The notes: a model not told the origin generated them from the letters alone. DNA of 64,000 nt from Gammaproteobacteria bacterium (GCA_965243205.1 CBDEUK010000002.1:768001-832000), one strand, 5' to 3'. Positions 27,967 to 39,859 are shown, numbered from the stretch's first letter. Made by a program: numbers and translations.

Positions 27967-28572
27967 ATGAAACATTTAATATCGGTTTTGTTTTTGAGTT
28001 TACTATGCTCGATCAGTTTTGCGAATGAAAACTATATTCTTGAAATTGATGGTAAGACTTTTGATATTGGTATCGACAAAGTAAAAACGATAAATATCAA
28101 TGGAGATGAACACTCTGTAAAACTGATGCAAAAAGCATTTATAGAATACAGCAGTGGTTTATTTAGCTTTACACATGATAAAGACTATCAACCAAACAAA
28201 ACTGATTTAGGCCAAGGTATCTACCAATCCGCTATGATGTCGGCACTTGGAACGGTCATCATTGTACAAGAATATACAAACATAAATCCTTCGACACTCA
28301 TAGACTTAATGTTACAAGAAGTGACTCGAGAAGAAGTTCAAATAGGCTATACATATAAAGAAGAACCAATCTCTCAAACAATCGATGGCAAAACTTTAAA
28401 CGGTAAACTAGCCATCACATCATCGAAAAATGAAGAATGGAAACGCGCAGTCTATGCTCATGGCAAAGACCAAGAAGGTATATTAATCATGACGATGATT
28501 GAAAAAGAAAATTACAATACTGAAACAAAAATCATTGATGAGTTTTGGAAGAACTTCCAAATTAAATTTTGA
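27967..28572 (+). CDS. Hypothetical exported protein
   Basis: Signal peptide ending SFA, AAGGA RBS, no recognised motif. Confidence 0.7.
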   Translation: MKHLISVLFLSLLCSISFANENYILEIDGKTFDIGIDKVKTININGDEHSVKLMQKAFIEYSSGLFSFTHDKDYQPNKTDLGQGIYQSAMMSALGTVIIVQEYTNINPSTLIDLMLQEVTREEVQIGYTYKEEPISQTIDGKTLNGKLAITSSKNEEWKRAVYAHGKDQEGILIMTMIEKENYNTETKIIDEFWKNFQIKF

Positions 28573-28678: not shown

Positions 28679-28711
28679 AAAAAAATGCCGACCAATTATT
28701 TGGTCGGCATT
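28679..28711 (-). terminator. Rho-independent terminator of the T1SS/RTX operon
   Basis: AATGCCGACCAA-TTAT-TTGGTCGGCATT with an A-run on the plus strand. Confidence 0.82.
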
Positions 28712-28740
28712 CATTAGATAGTAACTAAATTAATATTAGT

Positions 28741-31700
28741 TTATTGCCAAGCAGCTGCAATAGCCGTATTAAGTTCATTTTGTTGTTGAACAGTTAATCC
28801 ATCAATCGATGCTGGCTCCGTTGTACTAATTGATGCCATAACAGAAACTAATTGATCTAATTGATTTAGTAACAATGTTTTACCATCTGATAGTTCAAAA
28901 GTCTCAACTTGATAGTTTGCATTTAACATCTGGTTACTTACTGTTAACTTATCTTCCGAACCAATCACACTGATCTCGAGGTTGTTTCCAATTTTTCTAA
29001 ACCATAAATCATTTGCTGAAATGCCCGATTGAAATGTAACTTTGTCTTGATTCCCAGCCGCTGCATCATAATCATAAATCGTGTCTTGACCAGAGCCTAA
29101 GCCAAAGTGATAAATATCATCTCCATAGCCTCCGCTCATATAGTCATTGCCAGCACCTCCGTCTAAAATGTCATTACCATTGTCTCCATACAACGAGTCA
29201 TTTCCATCTTCGCCAAACAAGGTGTCGTTATCATTGCGACCATAAAGATAATCATTACCATCGCCACCACGCAACACATCATTACCATCCTGGCCATACA
29301 CCCAGTCGTTACCACCACCTGCGTTGATAACATCCGATGTCGCATAACCCGTGATCGTTTCACCATTGCTCGTTCCAACCAACAAGGTCTCCTTGATCCA
29401 ATCCAACACCCACGTCGTGCCATCCGCAAAACGAAGTTCTTCAATACTGTAACGCTCATCACCATCATTGAGTAAATAGTTACTCAACGTTAATTTGTCC
29501 GAGGTACCAACCACACTCAAAACTAGATTATTTCCGGTACGACTCAACTGAATATCGGTCGGCGCAATACCAGCCCCAAACTCAACCACATCCAAGTTAC
29601 CAGCCGTTGGGTCATAATCCGATATCGTGTCTTGACCAGAGCCTAAGCCAAAGTGATAAATATCATCTCCATAGCCTCCGCCCATATAATCATTGCCAGC
29701 ACCTCCGTCTAAAATGTCATTACCATTGTCTCCATACAACGAGTCATTTCCATCTTCGCCAAACAAGGTGTCGTTATCATTGCGACCATAAAGATAATCA
29801 TTACCATCGCCACCACGCAACACATCATTACCATCCTGGCCATACACCCAGTCGTTACCACCACCTGCGTTGATAACATCCGATGTCGCATAGCCCGTGA
29901 TCGTTTCACCATTGCTCGTTCCAACCAACAAGGTCTCCTTGATCCAATCCAACACCCACGTCGTGCCATCCGCAAAGCGAAGCTCTTCAATACTGTAACG
30001 CTCATCACCATCATTCAATAAATAGTTACTCAACGTTAATTTGTCCGAGGTACCAACCACACTCAAAACTAGATTATTTCCGGTACGACTCAACTGAATA
30101 TCGGTCGGCGCAATACCAGCCCCAAACTCAACCACATCCAAGTTACCAACCGTTGGGTCATAATCCGATATCGTGTCTTGACCAGAGCCTAAGCCAAAGT
30201 GATAAACATCATCTCCATAGCCTCCGCCCATATAGTCATTGCCAGCTCCTCCGTCTAAAATGTCATTACCATTGTCTCCATACAAAGAGTCATTTCCATC
30301 TTCGCCAAACAAGGTGTCGTTATCATTGCGACCATAAAGATAGTCATTACCATCGCCACCACGCAACACATCATTACCATCCTGGCCATACACCCAGTCG
30401 TTACCACCACCTGCGTTGATAACATCCGATGTCGCATAGCCCGTGATCGTTTCACCATTGCTCGTTCCAACCAACAAGGTCTCCTTGATCCAATCCAATA
30501 CCCACGTCGTGCCATCCGCAAAGCGAAGCTCTTCAATACTGTAACGCTCATCACCATCATTCAATAAATAGTTACTCAACGTTAATTTGTCCGAGGTACC
30601 AACCACACTCAAAACTAGATTATTTCCGGTACGACTCAACTGAATATCGGTCGGCGCAATACCAGCCCCAAACTCAACCACATCCAAGTTACCAGCCGTT
30701 GGGTCATAATCCGATATCGTGTCTTGACCAGAGCCTAGGCCAAAGTGATAAACATCATCTCCATAGCCTCCGCCCATATAGTCATTGCCAGCACCTCCGT
30801 CTAAAATGTCATTACCATTGTCTCCATACAACGAGTCATTTCCATCTTCGCCAAACAAGGTGTCGTTGTCATTGCGACCATAAAGATAGTCATTGCCATC
30901 GCCACCACGCAACACATCATTACCATCCTGGCCATACACCCAGTCGTTACCACCACCTGCGTTGATAACATCATCACCATTTGTACCAGTAAAGGTTTCT
31001 GAAGTGACAGTACCATTAGTATCAGAAGAACTAGAGCCACTGTCGTCATTACTATTTGAACTACCTGCAGCGATCAGAGTATCAATTTCATTACGCCCCC
31101 ATATTTCAGATGGTGTAGATTCAAAATGAAATTCTTCTAGTTGGTATTTTGGGTCAGTTCCATTTGACCAAAAATAATATTCCAAAGTCAGTTGTGTATT
31201 GACATCCAATGTTAAAATTAAATTATATCCAGACTGCTGTGCTGAAATTTCTGAAGGTAAAATATCGCCTTTAAAAATGACTTTATCTAATTTATTAGTA
31301 CCGTTATCGTAAAGGTAAATAGAATCTTTCCCATAGTTACGACCGAAATAATAGATGTCGTTTCCATCACCTCCATATAACCGATCGTTCCCTGCTCCTC
31401 CATCAAGAATATCATTACCATTCTCACCAACGAGGTAATCATTGCCATCATCTCCATTTAACACATCATTACCTTCACCGCCATAGACTGTATCGTTACC
31501 TGAACCAGCATCTAATGTGTCATTGCCATCAAAGCCGTAAACAACATCATCACCAGCACCAGCATTTAAAGTATCATCACTGGCATATCCACCTAACCAA
31601 TCATTTCCATCAGTTGCTGAATTCAATGCAGCATCTAGTAGATAATTAGTATCCCAAATCGTATCAGGTGAAGATTCAAATTGGATTTGGTTTATGTATG

Positions 31701-34700
31701 AGCCATAGTAATTACCAGGATCATTTAGGCCATCGCGAGTGAAGAAGTTTTTGACGATGAGGCGATCTTCGCCAGTAGGACTGGAAACAACCAATGTTAA
31801 GTCATTTTGATTCGCACCATTACCATTCTCGCGTTTAATCGTAACATCAGAAGGTAAAATATCACCAATGAACTTAATAATATCCGTTTCTTCAGTGGCG
31901 CCATAAATACGGGTATTCTCTATTCGATCAGTGCCGTATCCTCGACCAAATAGATAAGTGTCATTTCCTCCCTCGCCACGAAGCGTATCATCGCCAGTAC
32001 CTCCATCGAGAATATCATTGCCATTACCACCACTTAACCAATCATCTCCAGCTTCTCCATAGATAGTATCATTTCCTTCACCACCCATAAGGCCGCCGCT
32101 ATGTCCATTAGTACGTCGGTATAATCCATCATCACCATCACCGCCATAAATCACATCATCTCCTGCATCACCAAAGATTCGATCAATACCAGAGCCACCA
32201 TAAATGGTGTCATTACCATCCCGACTATAAATATCATCATCGCCTGCATTACCAGAAATGCTATCATCAGAATCATAACCAGTAATACGATCATTATTGC
32301 TGGTACCAATCAATAACTGACTTTTAACCCACTCTGTTGTCCAAACAGTATTATCAGAAAAACGAATTTCTTCGATACGACGTTCAGGCGTATTACCATC
32401 ATTATTGAAATACCATTCAAGAGTTAATTTATCGGAAGTATTTTTGATTAGCAGTTCTAAGTGGATTCCATTACGAATTAATTGAACATCATCAGGCGAA
32501 ACATCACTTAAAAACTCTACTGCATCTACCTTATTGGTTAGGTCAGTACCGTAACCATTGTAGTTCATGACTCTGTCATGACCATAACCTCTACCAAAAC
32601 GATAAACATCATTTCCTTCGCCGCCAACAAGAGTATCGTTACCGGTTCCACCATCTAATATGTCATTACCTTCATCACCAACCAGATAATCATCACCAGC
32701 ATCACCAAACAGTTGGTCATTACCTTTATGTCCATAGAGGGAATCCTTACCGTCATTTCCGTGAACTATATCATTGCCACTTCGTGCATAGATATAGTCA
32801 TCACCAGCATTACCAGTAATCACATCATCCGTTAGATAACCCGTAATAGTATTATTGTTATCATCTCCAGTAAGTACAAATTGTTTAATATAATCGACAT
32901 CCCATATTTGACCATTGGCAAAACGAATTTCATCTACCGCTGAAGCCTCGTTAATATCTTCAGTTGTAAAATAAGCACTAACAATCAATTTATCTGTTGT
33001 ACCAATAATTTCTAACTCTAATGAATTGCCAACTCGAGAAATTGCAATGTCTTCTGGAGAAATGTCGTTATTAAATACAATGGCATCTTGTTTTATTGGT
33101 GAATAATCATAACTTGAAATGGTATCTATTCCATAACCTCGGCCAAATTTATAAATATCGTTTCCATAGCCACCGTCAAGCCTATCATTGCCTGCACCAC
33201 CGTCTAAAATATCATCCCCAAATCGTATGGAACCATTATCACCATGAAGATAGTCATCACCAGCGCCGCCAAACAGGATGTCATCGCCAGCATCTCCGTA
33301 AAGAGAATCATCTCCATCATTTCCATAGAGGATATCGTTTAGCTCACCGCCTTGAAGTCGATCTGTTTCAGCTTGCCCTAATATAATTTCATTTTCTAAT
33401 CCTAAGCCATTACGAAACTGAGGATCATTTATGTCAGTTCGGTTGAATACATTCATTTGAACTAGTAAAGATTCAAGAGCACTATTTCCTTCTGCTTCAT
33501 CAGCCCAACTTTTCAACTGCTCAAGGCCATTCCATCCATATTGGTGCAAAGTATTGCCAGCATAACGATTTAGCTCAATCAGATCGATATAAGCTAACAT
33601 TGCACTTGACTGTTTAAGATCAGACAGTAAGGTATTGAGTGTTGTGAAATCAAAATCGATTGTCCCTGTATCACTAATACCAAAATCAATTGCTTCCATG
33701 TATGGTTTTAGTCGAGTTTGAAATAGTAGGCCTGCATAAATAGACTCACGTAATTGAGCATAAGACCTTTCTATATTTACTTTCTGTGCTTCTGCATATA
33801 CTAAATCCGTTTCTTTCATATAAATAACATTACTGTCCACACGACCACTACTTGAACCAGTACCAACGCCTCTTCTAAATGTAGTTCTTCCTGTACTAGC
33901 CGACGTTACAAATCGTTCTGGCTCTCCATCTTGATTGTCATCTTCAATCTCAAAACTAAAATCAAAGAAGTTTTGATTATTAAACACTTCTAACATTTGA
34001 ATTTTTGCTAGTACTTCAACATCTCGTCTGTCTGGATAAGCGCCTACTCTAAGTGTTGAACCGTCATGAGTAACATCTCCAATTGTTAAATAACCTGTAG
34101 AGCCGTTACTTCCAGAACCACTGCTAGTTGGGGTAGTAAATTCAGCATCATCTTCTAGAATTGGATTAGAGATTACAAACTCGACATCCCATGTTTTTGC
34201 AGCTACATTAACAGTGCCTGTGGAGATTGCAGGTGTTTCTATAGTGGCATCATCGAGTCGATCTTTTAAAAGATAATAGCCAGACGTTAAAGCCCATTCA
34301 TGGATGATTTGATCTAATAAAGCTTCTTGGCCAGCTTTAGTTGTGATTTGAGAATATTGATTTAAAAGGCTAGTCAATTCAGAACTTAATGTTGCTGCTT
34401 GTCTTAAATCACGAACCGCACCTGAACCTTGCATATTCGGAAGGGCTTGATGAGATTCAGGTATAGCTAAAACATCTTGGAACTCACGATAAAAATTATT
34501 CGTTGCTAGATTCAAACTTGCAGCAGCACCCGTTTGTCCAGTACTACCATTGCTATAAGTAAATGTACCTTCAGCAATCGCAACATTTCCATGACCAACA
34601 TTAGTGTTTGCCTGGACACCGTCAGTACTTATACTCTCGACACCTAGTTGGTTTAGAGTAAATAATTCATTTGATTGACTGATACCGTCAGAATTTAAGT

Positions 34701-35682
34701 CTCTCCAAATTCTTAACTTACTAAAATCAACATCTCTAGAATCAACTAACCCATCAGAATTGCTATCCAAATCACTTAAAGCATCAAAACCATCTTTTGC
34801 AGTAGAACCATCAGATTTAATCGTATTGTCACCAAATAACTCAAGACCATTATCGATCATACCATTATTGTTTCTATCCATGACGACCATTCCATCATCT
34901 GGATGAATCCAACCTATAGCAGATTTAGTTCCATCTGCATCATGATCAAACAATACTGTTCCATCAGCTGGAATCGTCTCAATACCGTCTCCATCTAAGT
35001 CAAGAGTAAGAGGATCACTAGGTGGAATCCATTTCAGTGCCTCTTGAAAAAACTCGCCTACAGGTTTGAATATTTCATCAAAATATGGCGCAAAGTAACT
35101 ATCATTTAATAACCAATCAACAGCTAGACCTACACCAATAAAAACACCAAATGTCGCAATAAGCCCCCATGATGCTGGAATTAATGCTGCTGCGATTAAA
35201 CCAGTTAATGTTGAAAATGCTAATTTTCCAATTTCACTTGGGTCATCACCAAATAGCGCATCAAGAAATTGATATAAATCATATGCTGCTCCACCTGCCT
35301 CTTTAATAATTTTTCCTGCAGCACCATAAGCAGCACTCTCTGTTGCAAGTTGAAGTTGTCCATTTACAGCATCTATACGGTTTCTTAAGTATGTACGTAT
35401 CTGACCCAAATCACCTGCTTTATCAGTAAGGGTTCTTGCTTCAACACTATCAGATCCAAAATGTGTTTGTGCTTTATCAGCTATATCTAAACCTAGATTT
35501 TGAATATACTCTAAGTTTTGTTCTAATTTATTCAGGGTATGTAATGCTGTCTCAGAATCGGAGAGCCCATTTTCTAACGCAAAATCAAATGCATCTCCTA
35601 TAGTTTGATTAATTGTATTTTTTACAGCCGAAGCAAAAGTTTTAACATCATTTTGAAATGAATTTTGGTTTTGTCCTGACAT
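28741..35682 (-). CDS. Large RTX calcium-binding protein with FrpC/ApxIVA-type self-processing module
   Basis: Many GGxGxDxL nonapeptides; D223-P224-LTLDLDGDGIET...GWIHPDDG...D.NNNG.IDNG.ELFGD; C-terminal T1SS-type signal ending ...QLDQLVSVMAS...AAWQ. Confidence 0.92.
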   Translation of the reverse strand: MSGQNQNSFQNDVKTFASAVKNTINQTIGDAFDFALENGLSDSETALHTLNKLEQNLEYIQNLGLDIADKAQTHFGSDSVEARTLTDKAGDLGQIRTYLRNRIDAVNGQLQLATESAAYGAAGKIIKEAGGAAYDLYQFLDALFGDDPSEIGKLAFSTLTGLIAAALIPASWGLIATFGVFIGVGLAVDWLLNDSYFAPYFDEIFKPVGEFFQEALKWIPPSDPLTLDLDGDGIETIPADGTVLFDHDADGTKSAIGWIHPDDGMVVMDRNNNGMIDNGLELFGDNTIKSDGSTAKDGFDALSDLDSNSDGLVDSRDVDFSKLRIWRDLNSDGISQSNELFTLNQLGVESISTDGVQANTNVGHGNVAIAEGTFTYSNGSTGQTGAAASLNLATNNFYREFQDVLAIPESHQALPNMQGSGAVRDLRQAATLSSELTSLLNQYSQITTKAGQEALLDQIIHEWALTSGYYLLKDRLDDATIETPAISTGTVNVAAKTWDVEFVISNPILEDDAEFTTPTSSGSGSNGSTGYLTIGDVTHDGSTLRVGAYPDRRDVEVLAKIQMLEVFNNQNFFDFSFEIEDDNQDGEPERFVTSASTGRTTFRRGVGTGSSSGRVDSNVIYMKETDLVYAEAQKVNIERSYAQLRESIYAGLLFQTRLKPYMEAIDFGISDTGTIDFDFTTLNTLLSDLKQSSAMLAYIDLIELNRYAGNTLHQYGWNGLEQLKSWADEAEGNSALESLLVQMNVFNRTDINDPQFRNGLGLENEIILGQAETDRLQGGELNDILYGNDGDDSLYGDAGDDILFGGAGDDYLHGDNGSIRFGDDILDGGAGNDRLDGGYGNDIYKFGRGYGIDTISSYDYSPIKQDAIVFNNDISPEDIAISRVGNSLELEIIGTTDKLIVSAYFTTEDINEASAVDEIRFANGQIWDVDYIKQFVLTGDDNNNTITGYLTDDVITGNAGDDYIYARSGNDIVHGNDGKDSLYGHKGNDQLFGDAGDDYLVGDEGNDILDGGTGNDTLVGGEGNDVYRFGRGYGHDRVMNYNGYGTDLTNKVDAVEFLSDVSPDDVQLIRNGIHLELLIKNTSDKLTLEWYFNNDGNTPERRIEEIRFSDNTVWTTEWVKSQLLIGTSNNDRITGYDSDDSISGNAGDDDIYSRDGNDTIYGGSGIDRIFGDAGDDVIYGGDGDDGLYRRTNGHSGGLMGGEGNDTIYGEAGDDWLSGGNGNDILDGGTGDDTLRGEGGNDTYLFGRGYGTDRIENTRIYGATEETDIIKFIGDILPSDVTIKRENGNGANQNDLTLVVSSPTGEDRLIVKNFFTRDGLNDPGNYYGSYINQIQFESSPDTIWDTNYLLDAALNSATDGNDWLGGYASDDTLNAGAGDDVVYGFDGNDTLDAGSGNDTVYGGEGNDVLNGDDGNDYLVGENGNDILDGGAGNDRLYGGDGNDIYYFGRNYGKDSIYLYDNGTNKLDKVIFKGDILPSEISAQQSGYNLILTLDVNTQLTLEYYFWSNGTDPKYQLEEFHFESTPSEIWGRNEIDTLIAAGSSNSNDDSGSSSSDTNGTVTSETFTGTNGDDVINAGGGNDWVYGQDGNDVLRGGDGNDYLYGRNDNDTLFGEDGNDSLYGDNGNDILDGGAGNDYMGGGYGDDVYHFGLGSGQDTISDYDPTAGNLDVVEFGAGIAPTDIQLSRTGNNLVLSVVGTSDKLTLSNYLLNDGDERYSIEELRFADGTTWVLDWIKETLLVGTSNGETITGYATSDVINAGGGNDWVYGQDGNDVLRGGDGNDYLYGRNDNDTLFGEDGNDSLYGDNGNDILDGGAGNDYMGGGYGDDVYHFGLGSGQDTISDYDPTVGNLDVVEFGAGIAPTDIQLSRTGNNLVLSVVGTSDKLTLSNYLLNDGDERYSIEELRFADGTTWVLDWIKETLLVGTSNGETITGYATSDVINAGGGNDWVYGQDGNDVLRGGDGNDYLYGRNDNDTLFGEDGNDSLYGDNGNDILDGGAGNDYMGGGYGDDIYHFGLGSGQDTISDYDPTAGNLDVVEFGAGIAPTDIQLSRTGNNLVLSVVGTSDKLTLSNYLLNDGDERYSIEELRFADGTTWVLDWIKETLLVGTSNGETITGYATSDVINAGGGNDWVYGQDGNDVLRGGDGNDYLYGRNDNDTLFGEDGNDSLYGDNGNDILDGGAGNDYMSGGYGDDIYHFGLGSGQDTIYDYDAAAGNQDKVTFQSGISANDLWFRKIGNNLEISVIGSEDKLTVSNQMLNANYQVETFELSDGKTLLLNQLDQLVSVMASISTTEPASIDGLTVQQQNELNTAIAAAWQ
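29077..30972 (-). repeat. Intragenic tandem repeat, 546-bp (182-aa) unit, about 3.5 near-identical copies
   Basis: Identical shadow ORFs recur at 29163/29709/30255/30801 and 29607/30153/30699 (period 546). Repeat ends are approximate. Confidence 0.92.
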
Positions 35683-35699
35683 TTAAATCCTCCTACTAT

Positions 35700-36224
35700 T
35701 TAGTTAACTAATTTCTTAAAAAAATGGGATAAATAAAAAATACTTATTATGAACATAGTCCATGAACCCCAAGATAAAATTGCCATCCCAATTAAAGTCT
35801 CTGAAAACAACCTAATAAATATTCCTGGTTTTACATTTTGAATGTTCCCTGAATGCTCAAAGCCACCAACACAAGTAATAACCCCTAAAAAGAATAAAAC
35901 AAATAAAAGGATTACTACTTTAGTTGTATATGCATCGTAATTTATTATTTTTATATTTCTGAAAAACAAGAAAAGTATTAATACGCTACTCAAAGGTAAA
36001 AATAGCCATACAGCTCTGGCCTCATCATAATAATCTGATAAAAGTGGTGATCGATTCACCGCAGGAATTAATAAAGATAATTGATCACAAACACTACAAT
36101 TCGCCATATCTATTTCCATATAATTTATTAAGCAAGCAATAGTTAAAGTAATTAATGCCCAACTACCTAATACTATGTTAGAAAATCGTTCAGATTTCTT
36201 AGATATATATCTCTCATCATTCAC
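35700..36224 (-). CDS. Small 4-TM membrane protein; candidate immunity or accessory protein of the RTX
   Basis: 174 aa, four hydrophobic segments, very AT-rich, between hlyD and the RTX gene (17 bp gap to the RTX). Confidence 0.7.
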   Translation of the reverse strand: MNDERYISKKSERFSNIVLGSWALITLTIACLINYMEIDMANCSVCDQLSLLIPAVNRSPLLSDYYDEARAVWLFLPLSSVLILFLFFRNIKIINYDAYTTKVVILLFVLFFLGVITCVGGFEHSGNIQNVKPGIFIRLFSETLIGMAILSWGSWTMFIISIFYLSHFFKKLVN

Positions 36225-36266
36225 TTATATGTTACCCAGTATATTTTTATTTCTAGCATTATAATT

Positions 36267-37709
36267 TTATCGCTCACGAATACTCTCTTGCTTATATCTA
36301 AGAAGCGGACTCAAAAAATATTCAATCACTCTTCGCTTACCTGTTTTAATTTCAACATTCACACTCATACCAGGTGTTAAATTAACTAATTTATTATTGA
36401 CCTGCATTTTAGTTTTATGAATTAAAATTTTAGCCATATACACCAAGCCTAAATTCTCATCAGATATTGCATCATTAGATAAATTAATTACCTCAGCATC
36501 AATGGTTCCGTATTTTGTAAAATTGAAGGTATCTATTTTCACCTCAGCAACTTGTCCTTCCTCGATGAAACCAATGTCTTTATTAAGCACTAAAGCTTCT
36601 ACTTCCAATACAGATTGTTCAGGAACAATGAGCATCAACTCTTGAGCTGGCGTAACGACTCCACCTATAGTGTGAACTGCTAATTGTTGAACTGTTCCAT
36701 TGATTGGAGAATAAATAACTTGTTGATGATTTCTTTTATTGGCTTTTATCAACTCTTGTTCAATTGAAGAAATTTGAATAGAAGTTTCATTCAATTCTTG
36801 CAGATTCGTTTTTTGTACTTCTGCTTTTAATGTTTTTAATTGTGAATTTATTTCATTGATAGAAGCTATGATTTCTCTGTGCTGCGCTTTTAATGCTTGA
36901 AGATCTTGCTCTTGCTCTATTCTTTCCTGTTCTAAAGATAAAAATTGATCTCTAGCAACTAAATCTTTTTTCATAAGTTTCTTTAAAGAATCAACGCGTT
37001 CAGTAATCAACGGCAATGTTCGCTCTAATTTAATAACTGTCGCTTTGATACTTTGTTTCTCTGACTGCCGTTTTTCTAACTCATTCAATAATGTCTCTTT
37101 TCTATGATCGTATTCATTGATTTGTTCAACTAATAACTGATGTTGATTATTCACTTCATTTTTAGAAAAGGCTTGCTCGTTATTTTGGTTATGAGAATCA
37201 TAAACATCATTAAACTCAGACAAAGAATTCTGTAACCATTCATTACTTCTTGAATCGCCTGTATCAAGTATTTTTTGGAATTCTGTATTACGTGTTTTTT
37301 GTAAGCCTAACGAATAAAGTTGTTGTTCAAATCGTGTCGCATCTGCTTCTGTGGCTGTAGTATCTAAGGTAATTAATACATCGCCTTCTTGAACATACTG
37401 CCCCTCTTTAACATGGATAGTATTGATTTTGCCTATTTCTAATGGTTGAATTGTTTTTACACGATCACTTGGAATAATTTTTCCTGGCGCAACAGCGACC
37501 ACATCCAGTTTTCCGAAATATCCCCAAACCAAAGTTAATACAAATAACAACATAATCGTCCAGATAATGGCTCTTCCAATAGGCGATGGAGGCGTCTCCT
37601 GAATTTCAAGTACTGCTGGCATAAAAGCATAGGTGCTTCGTCTGATTTTCTCAGGGGTATCAAACCAATCAATCGGTTTGTTTAAAATTTTTGTCAACCA
37701 TTTGATCAT
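36267..37709 (-). CDS. hlyD: T1SS membrane fusion protein (HlyD family)
   Basis: F.PAVLEIQETP, SPINGTVQQL, NKDIGF and PGMSVNVEIKTGKRRVIEYFLSP motifs. Confidence 0.93.
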   Translation of the reverse strand: MIKWLTKILNKPIDWFDTPEKIRRSTYAFMPAVLEIQETPPSPIGRAIIWTIMLLFVLTLVWGYFGKLDVVAVAPGKIIPSDRVKTIQPLEIGKINTIHVKEGQYVQEGDVLITLDTTATEADATRFEQQLYSLGLQKTRNTEFQKILDTGDSRSNEWLQNSLSEFNDVYDSHNQNNEQAFSKNEVNNQHQLLVEQINEYDHRKETLLNELEKRQSEKQSIKATVIKLERTLPLITERVDSLKKLMKKDLVARDQFLSLEQERIEQEQDLQALKAQHREIIASINEINSQLKTLKAEVQKTNLQELNETSIQISSIEQELIKANKRNHQQVIYSPINGTVQQLAVHTIGGVVTPAQELMLIVPEQSVLEVEALVLNKDIGFIEEGQVAEVKIDTFNFTKYGTIDAEVINLSNDAISDENLGLVYMAKILIHKTKMQVNNKLVNLTPGMSVNVEIKTGKRRVIEYFLSPLLRYKQESIRER

Positions 37710-39859
37710 GCAACGGCTCCATTACCAACGGTTTGATGAAAATGCAGTTTTGCATACAATCCTTTATGTTTTATTAACCCTTCATGATTCCCTTGTTCGA
37801 TAATCTTTCCTTTATCCATGACAATAATTCGATCGGCATTTCTGACAGTGGATAGTCGATGCGCAATAATTAAAACCGTTCTATCTTGTGCTATCGCTTG
37901 CATGTTATTTTGAATAATGCGTTCAGACTCATAATCTAAAGCGCTGGTTGCTTCATCAAAGATCAAAATTCTTGGGTTAGTTAATAATGCCCTTGCAATT
38001 GCTATACGTTGTTTTTGGCCGCCTGATAAATTTTGTCCTTGTTCTTCAATACGTGTGTCATAACCTTCAGGCATTTCTAAAATGAAATCATGTGCACCTG
38101 CTAATTTTGCAGCGTGAATGACTTCTTCGATTGGAGTTCCAGGGTCTGTCAAGGCAATGTTGTCTTTCACCGAACGATTAAATAAAAAGTTATCCTGTAA
38201 TACGACACCAATTTGTCGTCGGAGCCATGCGGGCTGTATTAATGATAAATCAATACCATCAACTAATATTCGACCGTTTTCTGGAACATATAATCGTTGT
38301 ACGAGTTTTGTAAGTGTGCTCTTACCTGAACCAGAACGCCCAACAATGCCAACAACTTCACCTGCTTGTATCGCTAAATTAATATCAGACAATATCTGAG
38401 GTTGGTCGGGGCGATATCGAAAACTGATATGCTCAAACTGGATATGACCTTTGATATCAGGAAGGGTAGTTCGATTAGGATCGTGTCCAGCTTCAGGAGG
38501 TGAGTTTAATATGTCACCCAATCGTTCAATTGAAATACCTGCTTGCTGGAAATCTTGCCATAATTGAACTAATCGTAAAATTGGACCTGATACTCTTCCA
38601 GCAATCATATTAAATGCTATTAATTGACCTACACTAAGTTCACCTAAGATAACCAAGCGAGCACCAAACCAAAGAATTAATATGGTTACAACTTTATTAA
38701 TGAATTGTGCAACCTGAGAAGAAATGTTTCCTAAATTTTGACTTCTAAATGCCGATGACACGTAGCCCGCTAATTGTTCTTCCCATTTGCGCTGCATCTG
38801 TGGTTCAACTGACATTGATTTTAATGTCTCTGCGCCTGAAATAGATTCAACTAAAAAAGCTTGATTCTCTGCACCACGTTTGAACTTTTCATCTAAACGT
38901 TTTCTTAAGATAGGTGTAATAAAAGCTGATAATGCAACATAAAATGGAATTGAACCAAGCACAACCCAAAACAAGGTTGGGCTGTAGTAATACATGACAG
39001 CAAAAAAGATGACTGTGAAAAATAAATCAATAACTAAAGTTAACGCTGAACCTGTAATAAAATTACGAATAGTATCCAGTTCTCTTACTCTTGCTACAGT
39101 GGTGCCAACTTGTCGAGTCTGAAAATAACTAATCGGTAAGCTAATCAGATGTCGATATAAATTTGATCCTAACGTTACATCAACACGATTGGTTGTGTGT
39201 GAAAATAAATAAGTTCGAAGACCATTCAGAACAACATCAAAAATTGAAATTGCTAGCAACCCAATCGCTAGAACATCCAGTGTACTCAAACCTCGATGCA
39301 CTAAGACTTTATCAATGATCACTTGAAAAAATAGCGGTGTAATCAATGCAAACAATTGTATAAAGAAAGAAGCCAGCAAGACTTCTCCTAATAATTTTTT
39401 GTGTTTAAGAATGGCAGGGATAAACCAACTAATATCAAATTTTCCTGAAACACCAGGAATAATAGAACGCTTGGTTATTAAAATCAGATCACCTGACCAA
39501 CGTTCATTCAAACGTGTTACGGATATTTCTTCTGGTCGATTTTGAGTAGGATCTTGTATTAAGACTTTTTCTTTTTCAGCGTTATACTGAGCTAAAATAA
39601 AATAATTACCTTCATTATCTTTTGCTATTGCAGGAAAAGAAAATTCAGATAAATTGCTAGAGCTAGTATGAACCGATTTAGCTTTAAGCTTAAGATATTT
39701 TGCTGCGCGTAAAATTTCTGTATCAGAAAATAAGCGATCTAATTGCCCAAACTCATGTTGTAGAGCTGGAGAATCAGCCGCTAACTGATAATAACGAGCG
39801 ATTAATACGAGACAGACGCACCCTGTATCAATTTTATTATTTTGTACTTCATCAGGCAT
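37706..39859 (-). CDS. hlyB: T1SS ABC transporter (HlyB family) with C39-like domain
   Basis: WFIPAI.K, DKVLVHRG, GRSGSGKST, LSGGQKQR and FDEATSALD motifs; ATGA overlap with hlyD. Confidence 0.95.
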   Translation of the reverse strand: MPDEVQNNKIDTGCVCLVLIARYYQLAADSPALQHEFGQLDRLFSDTEILRAAKYLKLKAKSVHTSSSNLSEFSFPAIAKDNEGNYFILAQYNAEKEKVLIQDPTQNRPEEISVTRLNERWSGDLILITKRSIIPGVSGKFDISWFIPAILKHKKLLGEVLLASFFIQLFALITPLFFQVIIDKVLVHRGLSTLDVLAIGLLAISIFDVVLNGLRTYLFSHTTNRVDVTLGSNLYRHLISLPISYFQTRQVGTTVARVRELDTIRNFITGSALTLVIDLFFTVIFFAVMYYYSPTLFWVVLGSIPFYVALSAFITPILRKRLDEKFKRGAENQAFLVESISGAETLKSMSVEPQMQRKWEEQLAGYVSSAFRSQNLGNISSQVAQFINKVVTILILWFGARLVILGELSVGQLIAFNMIAGRVSGPILRLVQLWQDFQQAGISIERLGDILNSPPEAGHDPNRTTLPDIKGHIQFEHISFRYRPDQPQILSDINLAIQAGEVVGIVGRSGSGKSTLTKLVQRLYVPENGRILVDGIDLSLIQPAWLRRQIGVVLQDNFLFNRSVKDNIALTDPGTPIEEVIHAAKLAGAHDFILEMPEGYDTRIEEQGQNLSGGQKQRIAIARALLTNPRILIFDEATSALDYESERIIQNNMQAIAQDRTVLIIAHRLSTVRNADRIIVMDKGKIIEQGNHEGLIKHKGLYAKLHFHQTVGNGAVA

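Follow-up and report, generated by a model that had tools for sequence, protein, structure and literature searches.

FrpC of Neisseria meningitidis, with its partner FrpD, and ApxIVA of Actinobacillus pleuropneumoniae are RTX proteins exported by type I secretion systems (T1SS), in which an N-terminal domain (N-domain) is followed by an Asp-Pro bond and a self-processing module (SPM), and whose genes have a small partner gene upstream. A locus with the same layout and a homologous SPM lies in the 64,000-nucleotide (nt) stretch of DNA analysed here (the window; Gammaproteobacteria bacterium, GCA_965243205.1, CBDEUK010000002.1:768001-832000), where four tightly packed open reading frames (ORFs) occupy 28741-39859 on the minus strand (all coordinates are positions in the full window). 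In agreement with a preliminary description made from the sequence alone, ORF calls and NCBIfam and Pfam matches gave the order hlyB, hlyD, a 174-amino-acid (aa) ORF with four predicted transmembrane (4-TM) helices and an RTX gene. The locus is best explained, at slightly better than even odds (about 0.55), as encoding a membrane toxin that would be delivered by the T1SS and released by Ca2+, together with a cognate 4-TM immunity protein; its computed support consists of the homology of the SPM, the T1SS context, the conservation of the N-domain and the 4-TM gene as a pair, and a predicted interface between the two proteins.

FrpC, FrpA and ApxIVA, all RTX proteins bearing an SPM, have been studied for more than 20 years and the module has found use in protein engineering (NeissLock); their natural role is unsettled. 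The N-domains of FrpC and ApxIVA are 414 and 638 aa long, whereas that of the window protein has 223 aa, is unrelated to them in sequence and contains a hydrophobic hairpin. FrpD is an outer-membrane lipoprotein, whereas the partner in the window is a predicted 4-TM membrane protein, and the window carries hlyB and hlyD in the same operon, unlike FrpC and ApxIVA. FrpC has been proposed as an antibacterial T1SS effector with FrpD as its immunity protein, and infection studies revealed no cytotoxicity or virulence defect for FrpC (PMC6759196).

Colicins A, B, S4 and R, with their Cai/Cbi-type immunity proteins, resemble the window pair in having a helical domain of approximately 200 aa with a late hydrophobic hairpin and an adjacent 4-TM gene of approximately 175 aa. 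Colicin A-type immunity proteins have an N-in/C-in topology. The colicin pore domain is C-terminal, whereas the putative toxin domain of the window is N-terminal; the window has neither the receptor and translocation domains of colicins nor a lysis gene, with export by the T1SS and predicted self-cleavage instead; and the candidate immunity gene precedes the RTX gene and shares its strand, in contrast to the records of colicins B, S4, A and R, which show the immunity gene downstream and in opposite orientation. Pore-forming colicins have immunity proteins that reside in the cytoplasmic membrane, and colicin-like depolarising domains are also delivered by type VI and type VII secretion systems (T6SS and T7SS; PMC9558359). 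TspA/TsaI of the T7SS and VasX/TsiV2, Tse4 and Ssp6 of the T6SS combine a depolarising domain on a system-specific carrier with membrane-located immunity (PMC9558359), as is proposed for the window, where the carrier is, unlike these toxins, an RTX/T1SS protein with a Ca2+-triggered Asp-Pro self-cleavage module. If this proposal is correct, T1SS export with Ca2+-triggered self-cleavage would join the delivery routes for colicin-type pore formers.

Processing of MARTX proteins depends on inositol hexakisphosphate (InsP6) and a cysteine-protease domain (CPD) and takes place inside eukaryotic cells. MARTX proteins are giant T1SS-exported RTX proteins which free effector domains by self-processing, and there are also RTX bacteriocins, for example RzcA, whose mechanism of action awaits characterisation (PMC3034196). 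An antibacterial effector of the X-type IV secretion system (X-T4SS) is homologous to the N-domains of many RTX proteins; with Smlt3024/Smlt3025 of Stenotrophomonas, a member of an RTX-type N-domain family acts as an antibacterial effector in the periplasm and has a cognate inhibitor (PMC6759196). Compared with the window, that pair has an N-domain of another family, a partner with an FrpD-like fold, and delivery by the X-T4SS rather than a T1SS. No immunity gene for RTX bacteriocins was encountered in the literature covered, some of it in excerpt, and a full-text literature search (subscription journals and supplements outside its scope) returned no report of an SPM-RTX protein with either a colicin-type domain or a membrane immunity protein. 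The window locus appears to join an FrpC-type self-processing RTX carrier with a colicin-style membrane toxin and immunity pair; the broader effector-immunity logic for SPM proteins has so far only been hypothesised. With its short cargo and a predicted membrane hairpin that is easily assayed, the locus is a simple test case.

The self-processing module

Residues 222-401 of the RTX protein aligned end to end (chain positions 1-180) with the solved SPM of FrpC (PDB 6sjx and 6sjw; E 2.4e-51), which bears out the FrpC-type module of the preliminary description. The SPM (aa 224-401; 34480..35013, minus strand) is preceded by the scissile bond Asp223-Pro224 (35011..35016, minus strand), which is aligned with D414-P415 of FrpC in 6sjx and was found by script at exactly the position first described; the bond is followed by DPLTLDLDGDGIET, and the script confirmed DPLTLDLDGDG there. 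In the same alignment the FrpC residues W451 and W519 are matched by W258 and W326, and the acidic loops at 269-281, 304-317 and 328-339, which represent the three EF-hand-like Ca2+ sites of FrpC, are kept (the roles of the Trp and Ca2+-loop residues of the FrpC SPM are treated in PMC7078468). By sequence homology, this is a genuine FrpC/ApxIVA-type module. SPM homologues from several species all showed cleavage in vitro, and the module tolerates any protein placed N-terminal to it (PMC12538545). Because of the homology to FrpC and the in vitro cleavage by SPM homologues, Ca2+-dependent release of aa 1-223 is strongly to be expected.

The linker ahead of the cleavage site, FF..A..W.(P)..D-P, which spans aa 203-223 of the window protein, recurs in three other SPM loci (L024, L025 and L027), the N-domains being otherwise unrelated. 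Since this linker is common to unrelated N-domains, the variable cargo probably ends near aa 200.

The N-domain and its membrane partner

The N-domain (aa 1-223; 35014..35682, minus strand) had no match in Pfam, NCBIfam or the PDB. It was predicted to be all-helical, as the preliminary description had it, at low confidence: the AlphaFold2 (AF2) model, built on a two-row alignment, has seven helices, of which those at 149-166 and 170-193 form the hairpin (pLDDT 51, pTM 0.43), and a Foldseek comparison of this low-confidence model with the PDB gave zero matches at E up to 0.001. The hairpin is a 35-residue uncharged, hydrophobic helical stretch with a Pro-Ala-Ser turn (aa 154-188; 35119..35223, minus strand), delimited by script at exactly the residues originally given and marked also by conservation and by the predicted interface described below. 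It is the longest uncharged stretch within the first 400 residues of the RTX protein.

When 1.84 billion cluster representatives were searched exhaustively with phmmer, the only relative returned besides the N-domain itself was P0006 (1327 aa, E 2e-4), which is encoded in a Methylococcaceae metagenome-assembled genome (MAG; locus L006) and has a precomputed PF26745 annotation. This protein consists of an N-domain of ~241 aa, Tyr-Asp-Pro-LTLDLDGDGIET, an SPM and RTX repeats. It was also the only protein returned by a profile search of longer proteins with the N-domain, and among 41 related genomes the only match with E < 0.01 was in the window's own genome (G000). The two N-domains are 38% identical (BLASTP), and invariant columns number 33 of 68 in aa 124-191, 21 of 123 in aa 1-123 and 3 of 32 in aa 192-223. 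Conservation is centred on aa 124-191, the best-kept block, which spans the hairpin and the helix preceding it.

The 174-aa ORF (35700..36224, minus strand; GTG start) likewise had no match in Pfam, NCBIfam or the PDB. Its product has four hydrophobic stretches, a K/R-rich N-terminal tail and TM2-TM3 loop, and an acidic first loop with two cysteines, and its AF2 model consists of four long helices and one short loop helix (pLDDT 47). Its size, hydropathy and charge distribution, together with this low-confidence model, fit an inner-membrane protein of N-in/C-in topology. As had been claimed, it is unlike the FrpD lipoprotein: four hydrophobic helices were found where an FrpD-type protein has a lipobox signal peptide and a soluble beta-rich fold, and no lipobox was seen by eye. 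The genome contains no second copy of the gene, a word-indexed search with the protein returned only itself, and its profile returned only P0007, the L006 ORF described next.

In L006 a 189-aa ORF lies directly upstream of the RTX gene and is 28% identical to the 174-aa protein over 169 aa (E 1e-18). The same arrangement and the same sequence were found on a Joint Genome Institute (JGI) metagenome contig (L007), which is not an independent lineage; this locus was the sole return of one genome-contig scan and one metagenome scan. The neighbourhood of the L006 RTX locus, which follows genes for an RND pump and a secreted protein, is unlike that of the window, and the hlyB orthologue (60% identity) and hlyD of the MAG are on another contig, beside a DNA polymerase III alpha-subunit gene (DNA_pol3_alpha). 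Since hlyB and hlyD of the L006 MAG lie on this separate contig, the 4-TM gene travels with the cargo and not with the pump; as judged from these two genomes, it is a conserved partner of this N-domain and not of the transporter. Upstream of the 189-aa partner gene, at a distance of 478 nt, is a 176-aa multi-TM ORF (L006:8018-8548, plus strand; also in L007). It has no Pfam match and its likeness to the partner is not significant (E 0.034); it could be an orphan or a second immunity gene.

Co-folding of aa 1-223 with the 174-aa protein, on two-row alignments built for this analysis, placed the hairpin against the transmembrane helices of the partner, a result in line with the pairing proposed in the preliminary description. 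The complex had an ipSAE of 0.62 (0.62, 0.69 and 0.62 in the individual runs) compared with 0.02 for the best of three controls; a score of 0.62 is reached by 58 of 80 solved complexes, as against 2 of 110 mismatched pairs. The runs shared at least 77% of contacts, with a pLDDT of at least 81 for the partner and of 50-54 for the N-domain. The confident interface comprises N-domain residues 157-194 and partner residues within 4-23, 98-124 and 133-164, plus residue 62, so that the hairpin is predicted to sit among TM1, TM3 and TM4.

Colicin likeness and rival explanations

The layout of the pair agrees with that of a pore-forming colicin and its A-type immunity protein, in that the 223-aa N-domain is predicted to be helical with a hairpin near its C-terminal end, and the 174-aa protein has four predicted TM helices and is encoded next to the candidate toxin gene. 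The two-row N-domain profile was aligned with colicin pore domains (hhalign), the references being drawn from two genomes and seven plasmid records (a truncated record, L056, was omitted), and the probability was 3% with 2 templates, 38% with 4 and 23% with 9. With nine templates, a score of 30.0 was obtained for a co-linear alignment of 155 columns (query 59-214, template 47-206) running through both hydrophobic hairpins. All nulls lay lower: at most 23.2 for 100 column shuffles, 15.7 on average for 100 block shuffles (standard deviation 2.4, highest 23.3), 18.9 for the profile in reverse, and 9.1-21.1 for the N-domains of 14 further SPM proteins. The partner gave a probability of 13% (score 26.4) against five A-type immunity proteins and of 0.7% against those of the E1 type, a miss which says little, since known immunity families of the E1 and A types miss each other as well (0.5%). 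In the ESM Atlas a PF01024 cluster stood at rank 12 for the N-domain (score 0.87), and the top cluster for the partner (score 0.94; 203 of 256 features shared) carries PF03857 (Colicin_im) on 62% of its members. Because two unrelated proteins each point weakly to the two halves of one known pair, a distant homology to colicins is suggested by the sequences, at odds well short of even; a way of working similar to that of the colicin pair is well supported.

The following course of events is envisaged. Carried by its RTX body and C-terminus, the protein would be exported through HlyB/HlyD and a TolC-family channel encoded elsewhere, and millimolar Ca2+ outside the cell would fold the RTX body and the SPM, both steps being expected because of family membership. 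The SPM would then cut Asp223-Pro224, as its strong homology indicates, leaving a freed 223-residue domain that ends in a reactive aspartyl anhydride. This helical domain would insert into the inner membrane of a neighbouring bacterium through its hairpin and depolarise it, acting like a colicin pore-forming domain, of which it may be distant kin, with the hairpin and the preceding helix as its conserved core. In sibling cells the TM helices of the 4-TM protein would pack against the hairpin within the membrane and so neutralise the toxin. Insertion and neutralisation are proposed because of the conservation of the gene pair, the complex model and the weak colicin signals. Cleavage, toxicity, pore formation, immunity and the way in which the fragment would arrive at the inner membrane of a target are all inferred.

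Several results weigh against this explanation. Neither protein was matched by the profile hidden Markov models (HMMs) of PF01024 or PF03857 at E up to 10, there were zero matches in the genome (G000), and the N-domain of P0006 is also without PF01024. The window N-domain sequence on its own scored 16.9 in hhalign, inside the null range, and the best of 60 block shuffles reached 26.0, next to the real score of 26.4 for the partner. The hhalign probabilities, 23-38% (N-domain) and 13% (partner), fall under any accepted homology threshold, and the term colicin-like in the preliminary description therefore stands weakly as a statement of homology, carried by an N-domain score above its nulls and countered by these probabilities and the missing HMM match. 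The ESM Atlas scores are weak, as recognition (2014 for the N-domain and 1964 for the partner) was below the 2300 mark. The AF2 model of the N-domain, at pLDDT 51, has long helices and not a compact ten-helix globule; conservation of the N-domain and 4-TM gene as a pair rests on two lineages only; and the control proteins for the complex model, natural and unrelated, are not described as membrane proteins, which means that generic hydrophobic packing may inflate the contrast in scores. No receptor-binding or translocation domain is recognisable in the protein, and the crossing of the target's outer membrane is unexplained; speculatively, it could be mediated by the RTX body or by the ~58 N-terminal residues that the colicin alignment does not cover, or the aspartyl anhydride could tether the fragment to surface amines. 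Finally, FrpC and ApxIVA are the only SPM proteins to have been studied experimentally, and the role proposed for them is covalent adhesion to host cells (PMC7078468).

This last proposal leads to a different account of the locus, in which the N-domain is clipped off and cross-linked through its anhydride to surface proteins of a host or of the producer, with the 4-TM protein serving the hydrophobic N-terminus in docking, retention or as an export chaperone instead of conferring immunity. The close homology of the window SPM to the FrpC module speaks for it, and a tightly linked upstream partner gene is common at SPM loci. Adhesion of this kind is nevertheless unlikely: the predicted inner-membrane partner cannot meet a T1SS-exported protein unless that protein re-enters a cell, and only a toxin that acts on bacteria and re-enters them would come upon the partner in its predicted compartment. 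Furthermore, the conserved core of the N-domain is an uncharged 35-residue hairpin and not a soluble binding surface.

The same hairpin could also belong to a cytolysin that attacks the membranes of eukaryotic grazers or hosts once Ca2+ has triggered its release, the 4-TM protein then doing no more than guard the producer, before export, from insertion of the nascent hydrophobic N-terminus into its own inner membrane. RTX proteins are classically cytolysins, the fragment is without the recognisable receptor or translocation domain that an antibacterial toxin would need, and the hairpin leaves the ribosome long before the C-terminal secretion signal. Such a toxin is improbable here in view of its single hairpin, unlike the multi-helix hydrophobic domain of HlyA-type toxins, and of the N-terminal hydrophobic, signal-like segments of several other SPM partners, such as periplasmic immunity proteins of antibacterial effectors also have. 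There is also no HlyC-type acyltransferase in the locus or genome, though control genomes gave none either. It is very unlikely that the N-domain has some other role, such as self-association or anchoring of the RTX body in the producer's outer membrane until Ca2+-triggered shedding, and that the 4-TM ORF is unrelated to it and linked by chance. Neither protein has a family assignment and both fold models are of low confidence, as would suit such a view; against it, the two genes are adjacent in two distant genomes despite differing neighbourhoods, the complex model passes its controls, and N-domain and upstream-gene families co-vary across SPM loci, as described in the next section.

Other self-processing loci and the surroundings of the operon

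A search of 401 sampled genomes of the class with the SPM as query gave matches in 43 of them at E up to 1e-10 (a count which includes the window's genome and one unpublished genome). The boundary motif was present in 23 of 30 returned loci (25 rows); 15 rows, from 13 loci, open with Asp-Pro, and ten open with Ser-, Thr-, Pro- or Ala-Pro and lie within giant proteins (L028, L030-L032, L034, L038, L040, L043, L046 and L048). At least eight of these ten modules have more than 126 residues upstream, and in seven of them at least 500 residues precede the module, the frame being still open at the edge of the locus; judged by these sequences, they are probably non-cleaving relatives of the SPM.

Fourteen Asp-Pro N-domains, the window's included, are bounded by a stop codon; they are 84-268 aa long and mutually diverse, and one is a class-3 lipase (PF01764, E 3.2e-6). 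Upstream genes were checked for 12 N-domains (excluded were those of the window and of the unpublished genome and a third whose 5' end is open). For eight of the 12, a same-strand ORF of at least 130 aa ends no more than 37 nt from the start of the SPM gene, in three cases with a one-base overlap; the other four had no such ORF. Several of the upstream partners open with a hydrophobic, signal-like segment, and in L022 a small gene lies between hlyD and the SPM gene, as in the window. In all-against-all BLASTP comparisons, N-domain and upstream-gene identities were 38% and 28% for the window and L006, 27% and 62% for L021a and L026a, 47% and 29% for L021b and L022, and 37% and 23% for L021b and L026b, and upstream-gene matches never crossed N-domain families. 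Co-varying families of this kind are, at the sequence level, the signature of polymorphic toxin-immunity modules, with the qualification that the genomes behind the co-variation are related and not independent samples.

It is conceivable, at somewhat less than an even chance, that Asp-Pro SPM proteins in general form a T1SS polymorphic toxin system, with a constant carrier, swappable cargo (colicin-like, lipase or unnamed) and upstream immunity genes, in which the cargo would be released by Ca2+ and its anhydride would possibly prime covalent capture on the target surface. Such a system, if real, would in addition account for FrpC/FrpD and ApxIVA, whose function is unresolved; and the Ca2+-released membrane toxin proposed for the window, if true, would support a polymorphic toxin-immunity logic for the SPMs of the 43 genomes.

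Two of these loci, L021 (G454:C57) and L026 (G654:C18), each contain two SPM genes in tandem, whose open frames are short (403-508 aa). The class-3 lipase is among their N-domains, and the other N-domain family has a conserved 'GSQCS(T/M)W' motif; each has its own upstream ORF. In L025 (G656:C1:2426416-2429931) the N-domain of an Asp-Pro SPM protein (ORF of 3578 aa) is 221 aa long (L025:2014-2676, minus strand) and includes a long Ala/Gly-rich hydrophobic stretch at about aa 89-127, and a 231-aa ORF with two hydrophobic (TM) segments ends 16 nt upstream of the SPM gene. This is an analogous, unrelated pair of membrane cargo and membrane partner.

In the window, hlyB (37706..39859, minus strand) encodes a T1SS ABC transporter of 717 aa with matches to TIGR01846 (1079 bits against a cut-off of 725.55; NCBIfam), PF00664, PF00005 and PF03412 and an N-terminal C39-like domain, and shares a 4-nt overlap with hlyD (36267..37709, minus strand), which encodes a periplasmic adaptor of 480 aa (TIGR01843, E 1e-124; PF13437). 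The RTX gene (28741..35682, minus strand), whose start codon is 17 nt beyond the end of the 174-aa ORF, encodes a protein of 2313 aa with 25 stretches matching PF00353 (E 2e-137), six matching PF06594 (HCBP_related) and 38 motifs of the G-x-G-x-D type between aa 787 and aa 2184. By its repeats and the adjoining HlyB/HlyD genes this protein is classed as a T1SS RTX substrate. A linker of 385 aa (33325..34479, minus strand) joins the SPM to the RTX repeats and is also present in P0006, with a common segment 'LPNMQGSG.VRDLR.AA' seen by eye. As the preliminary description had noted, neither hlyC nor tolC is among the neighbouring genes. Five OEP/TolC-family ORFs were found elsewhere in the 2.79-Mb genome and zero in the window; the HlyC acyltransferase family PF02794 had no match in the genome or in the control genomes.

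The repeat body of RTX nonapeptide and HCBP_related type (29107..33324, minus strand; Pfam matches and motif count) includes a tandem array of four 546-bp (182-aa) units at 29051-30988, continuing to ~31230; the units are 91-100% identical and were missed by Tandem Repeats Finder (TRF; period > 500) and detected by a separate repeat search. Contigs of the source runs break at these units. The G+C content rises to 0.46 in the RTX repeats (29000-31000), compared with about 0.32-0.36 in the flanks, with a strong negative GC skew; the raised G+C is expected from Gly/Asp-rich repeats and alone is no evidence of foreign origin. The locus is present in four sequencing runs, all of one sample, and in three runs with the same species label even the housekeeping flanks were uncovered at 85% likeness, which makes these runs uninformative on strain distribution.

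A terminator-like hairpin with a 13-bp stem and a T tail (28683..28712, minus strand; consensus scan only) lies 29 nt past the RTX stop codon, and a promoter scan was uninformative (36 sites, compared with 46.1 in shuffled sequences). The flanking genes are of housekeeping type: one flank encodes an SLT transglycosylase and PgpA, the other a dihydroxy-acid/6-phosphogluconate dehydratase. A 201-aa ORF with no Pfam match (27967-28572, plus strand) lies between the gene for this dehydratase and the terminator-like hairpin.

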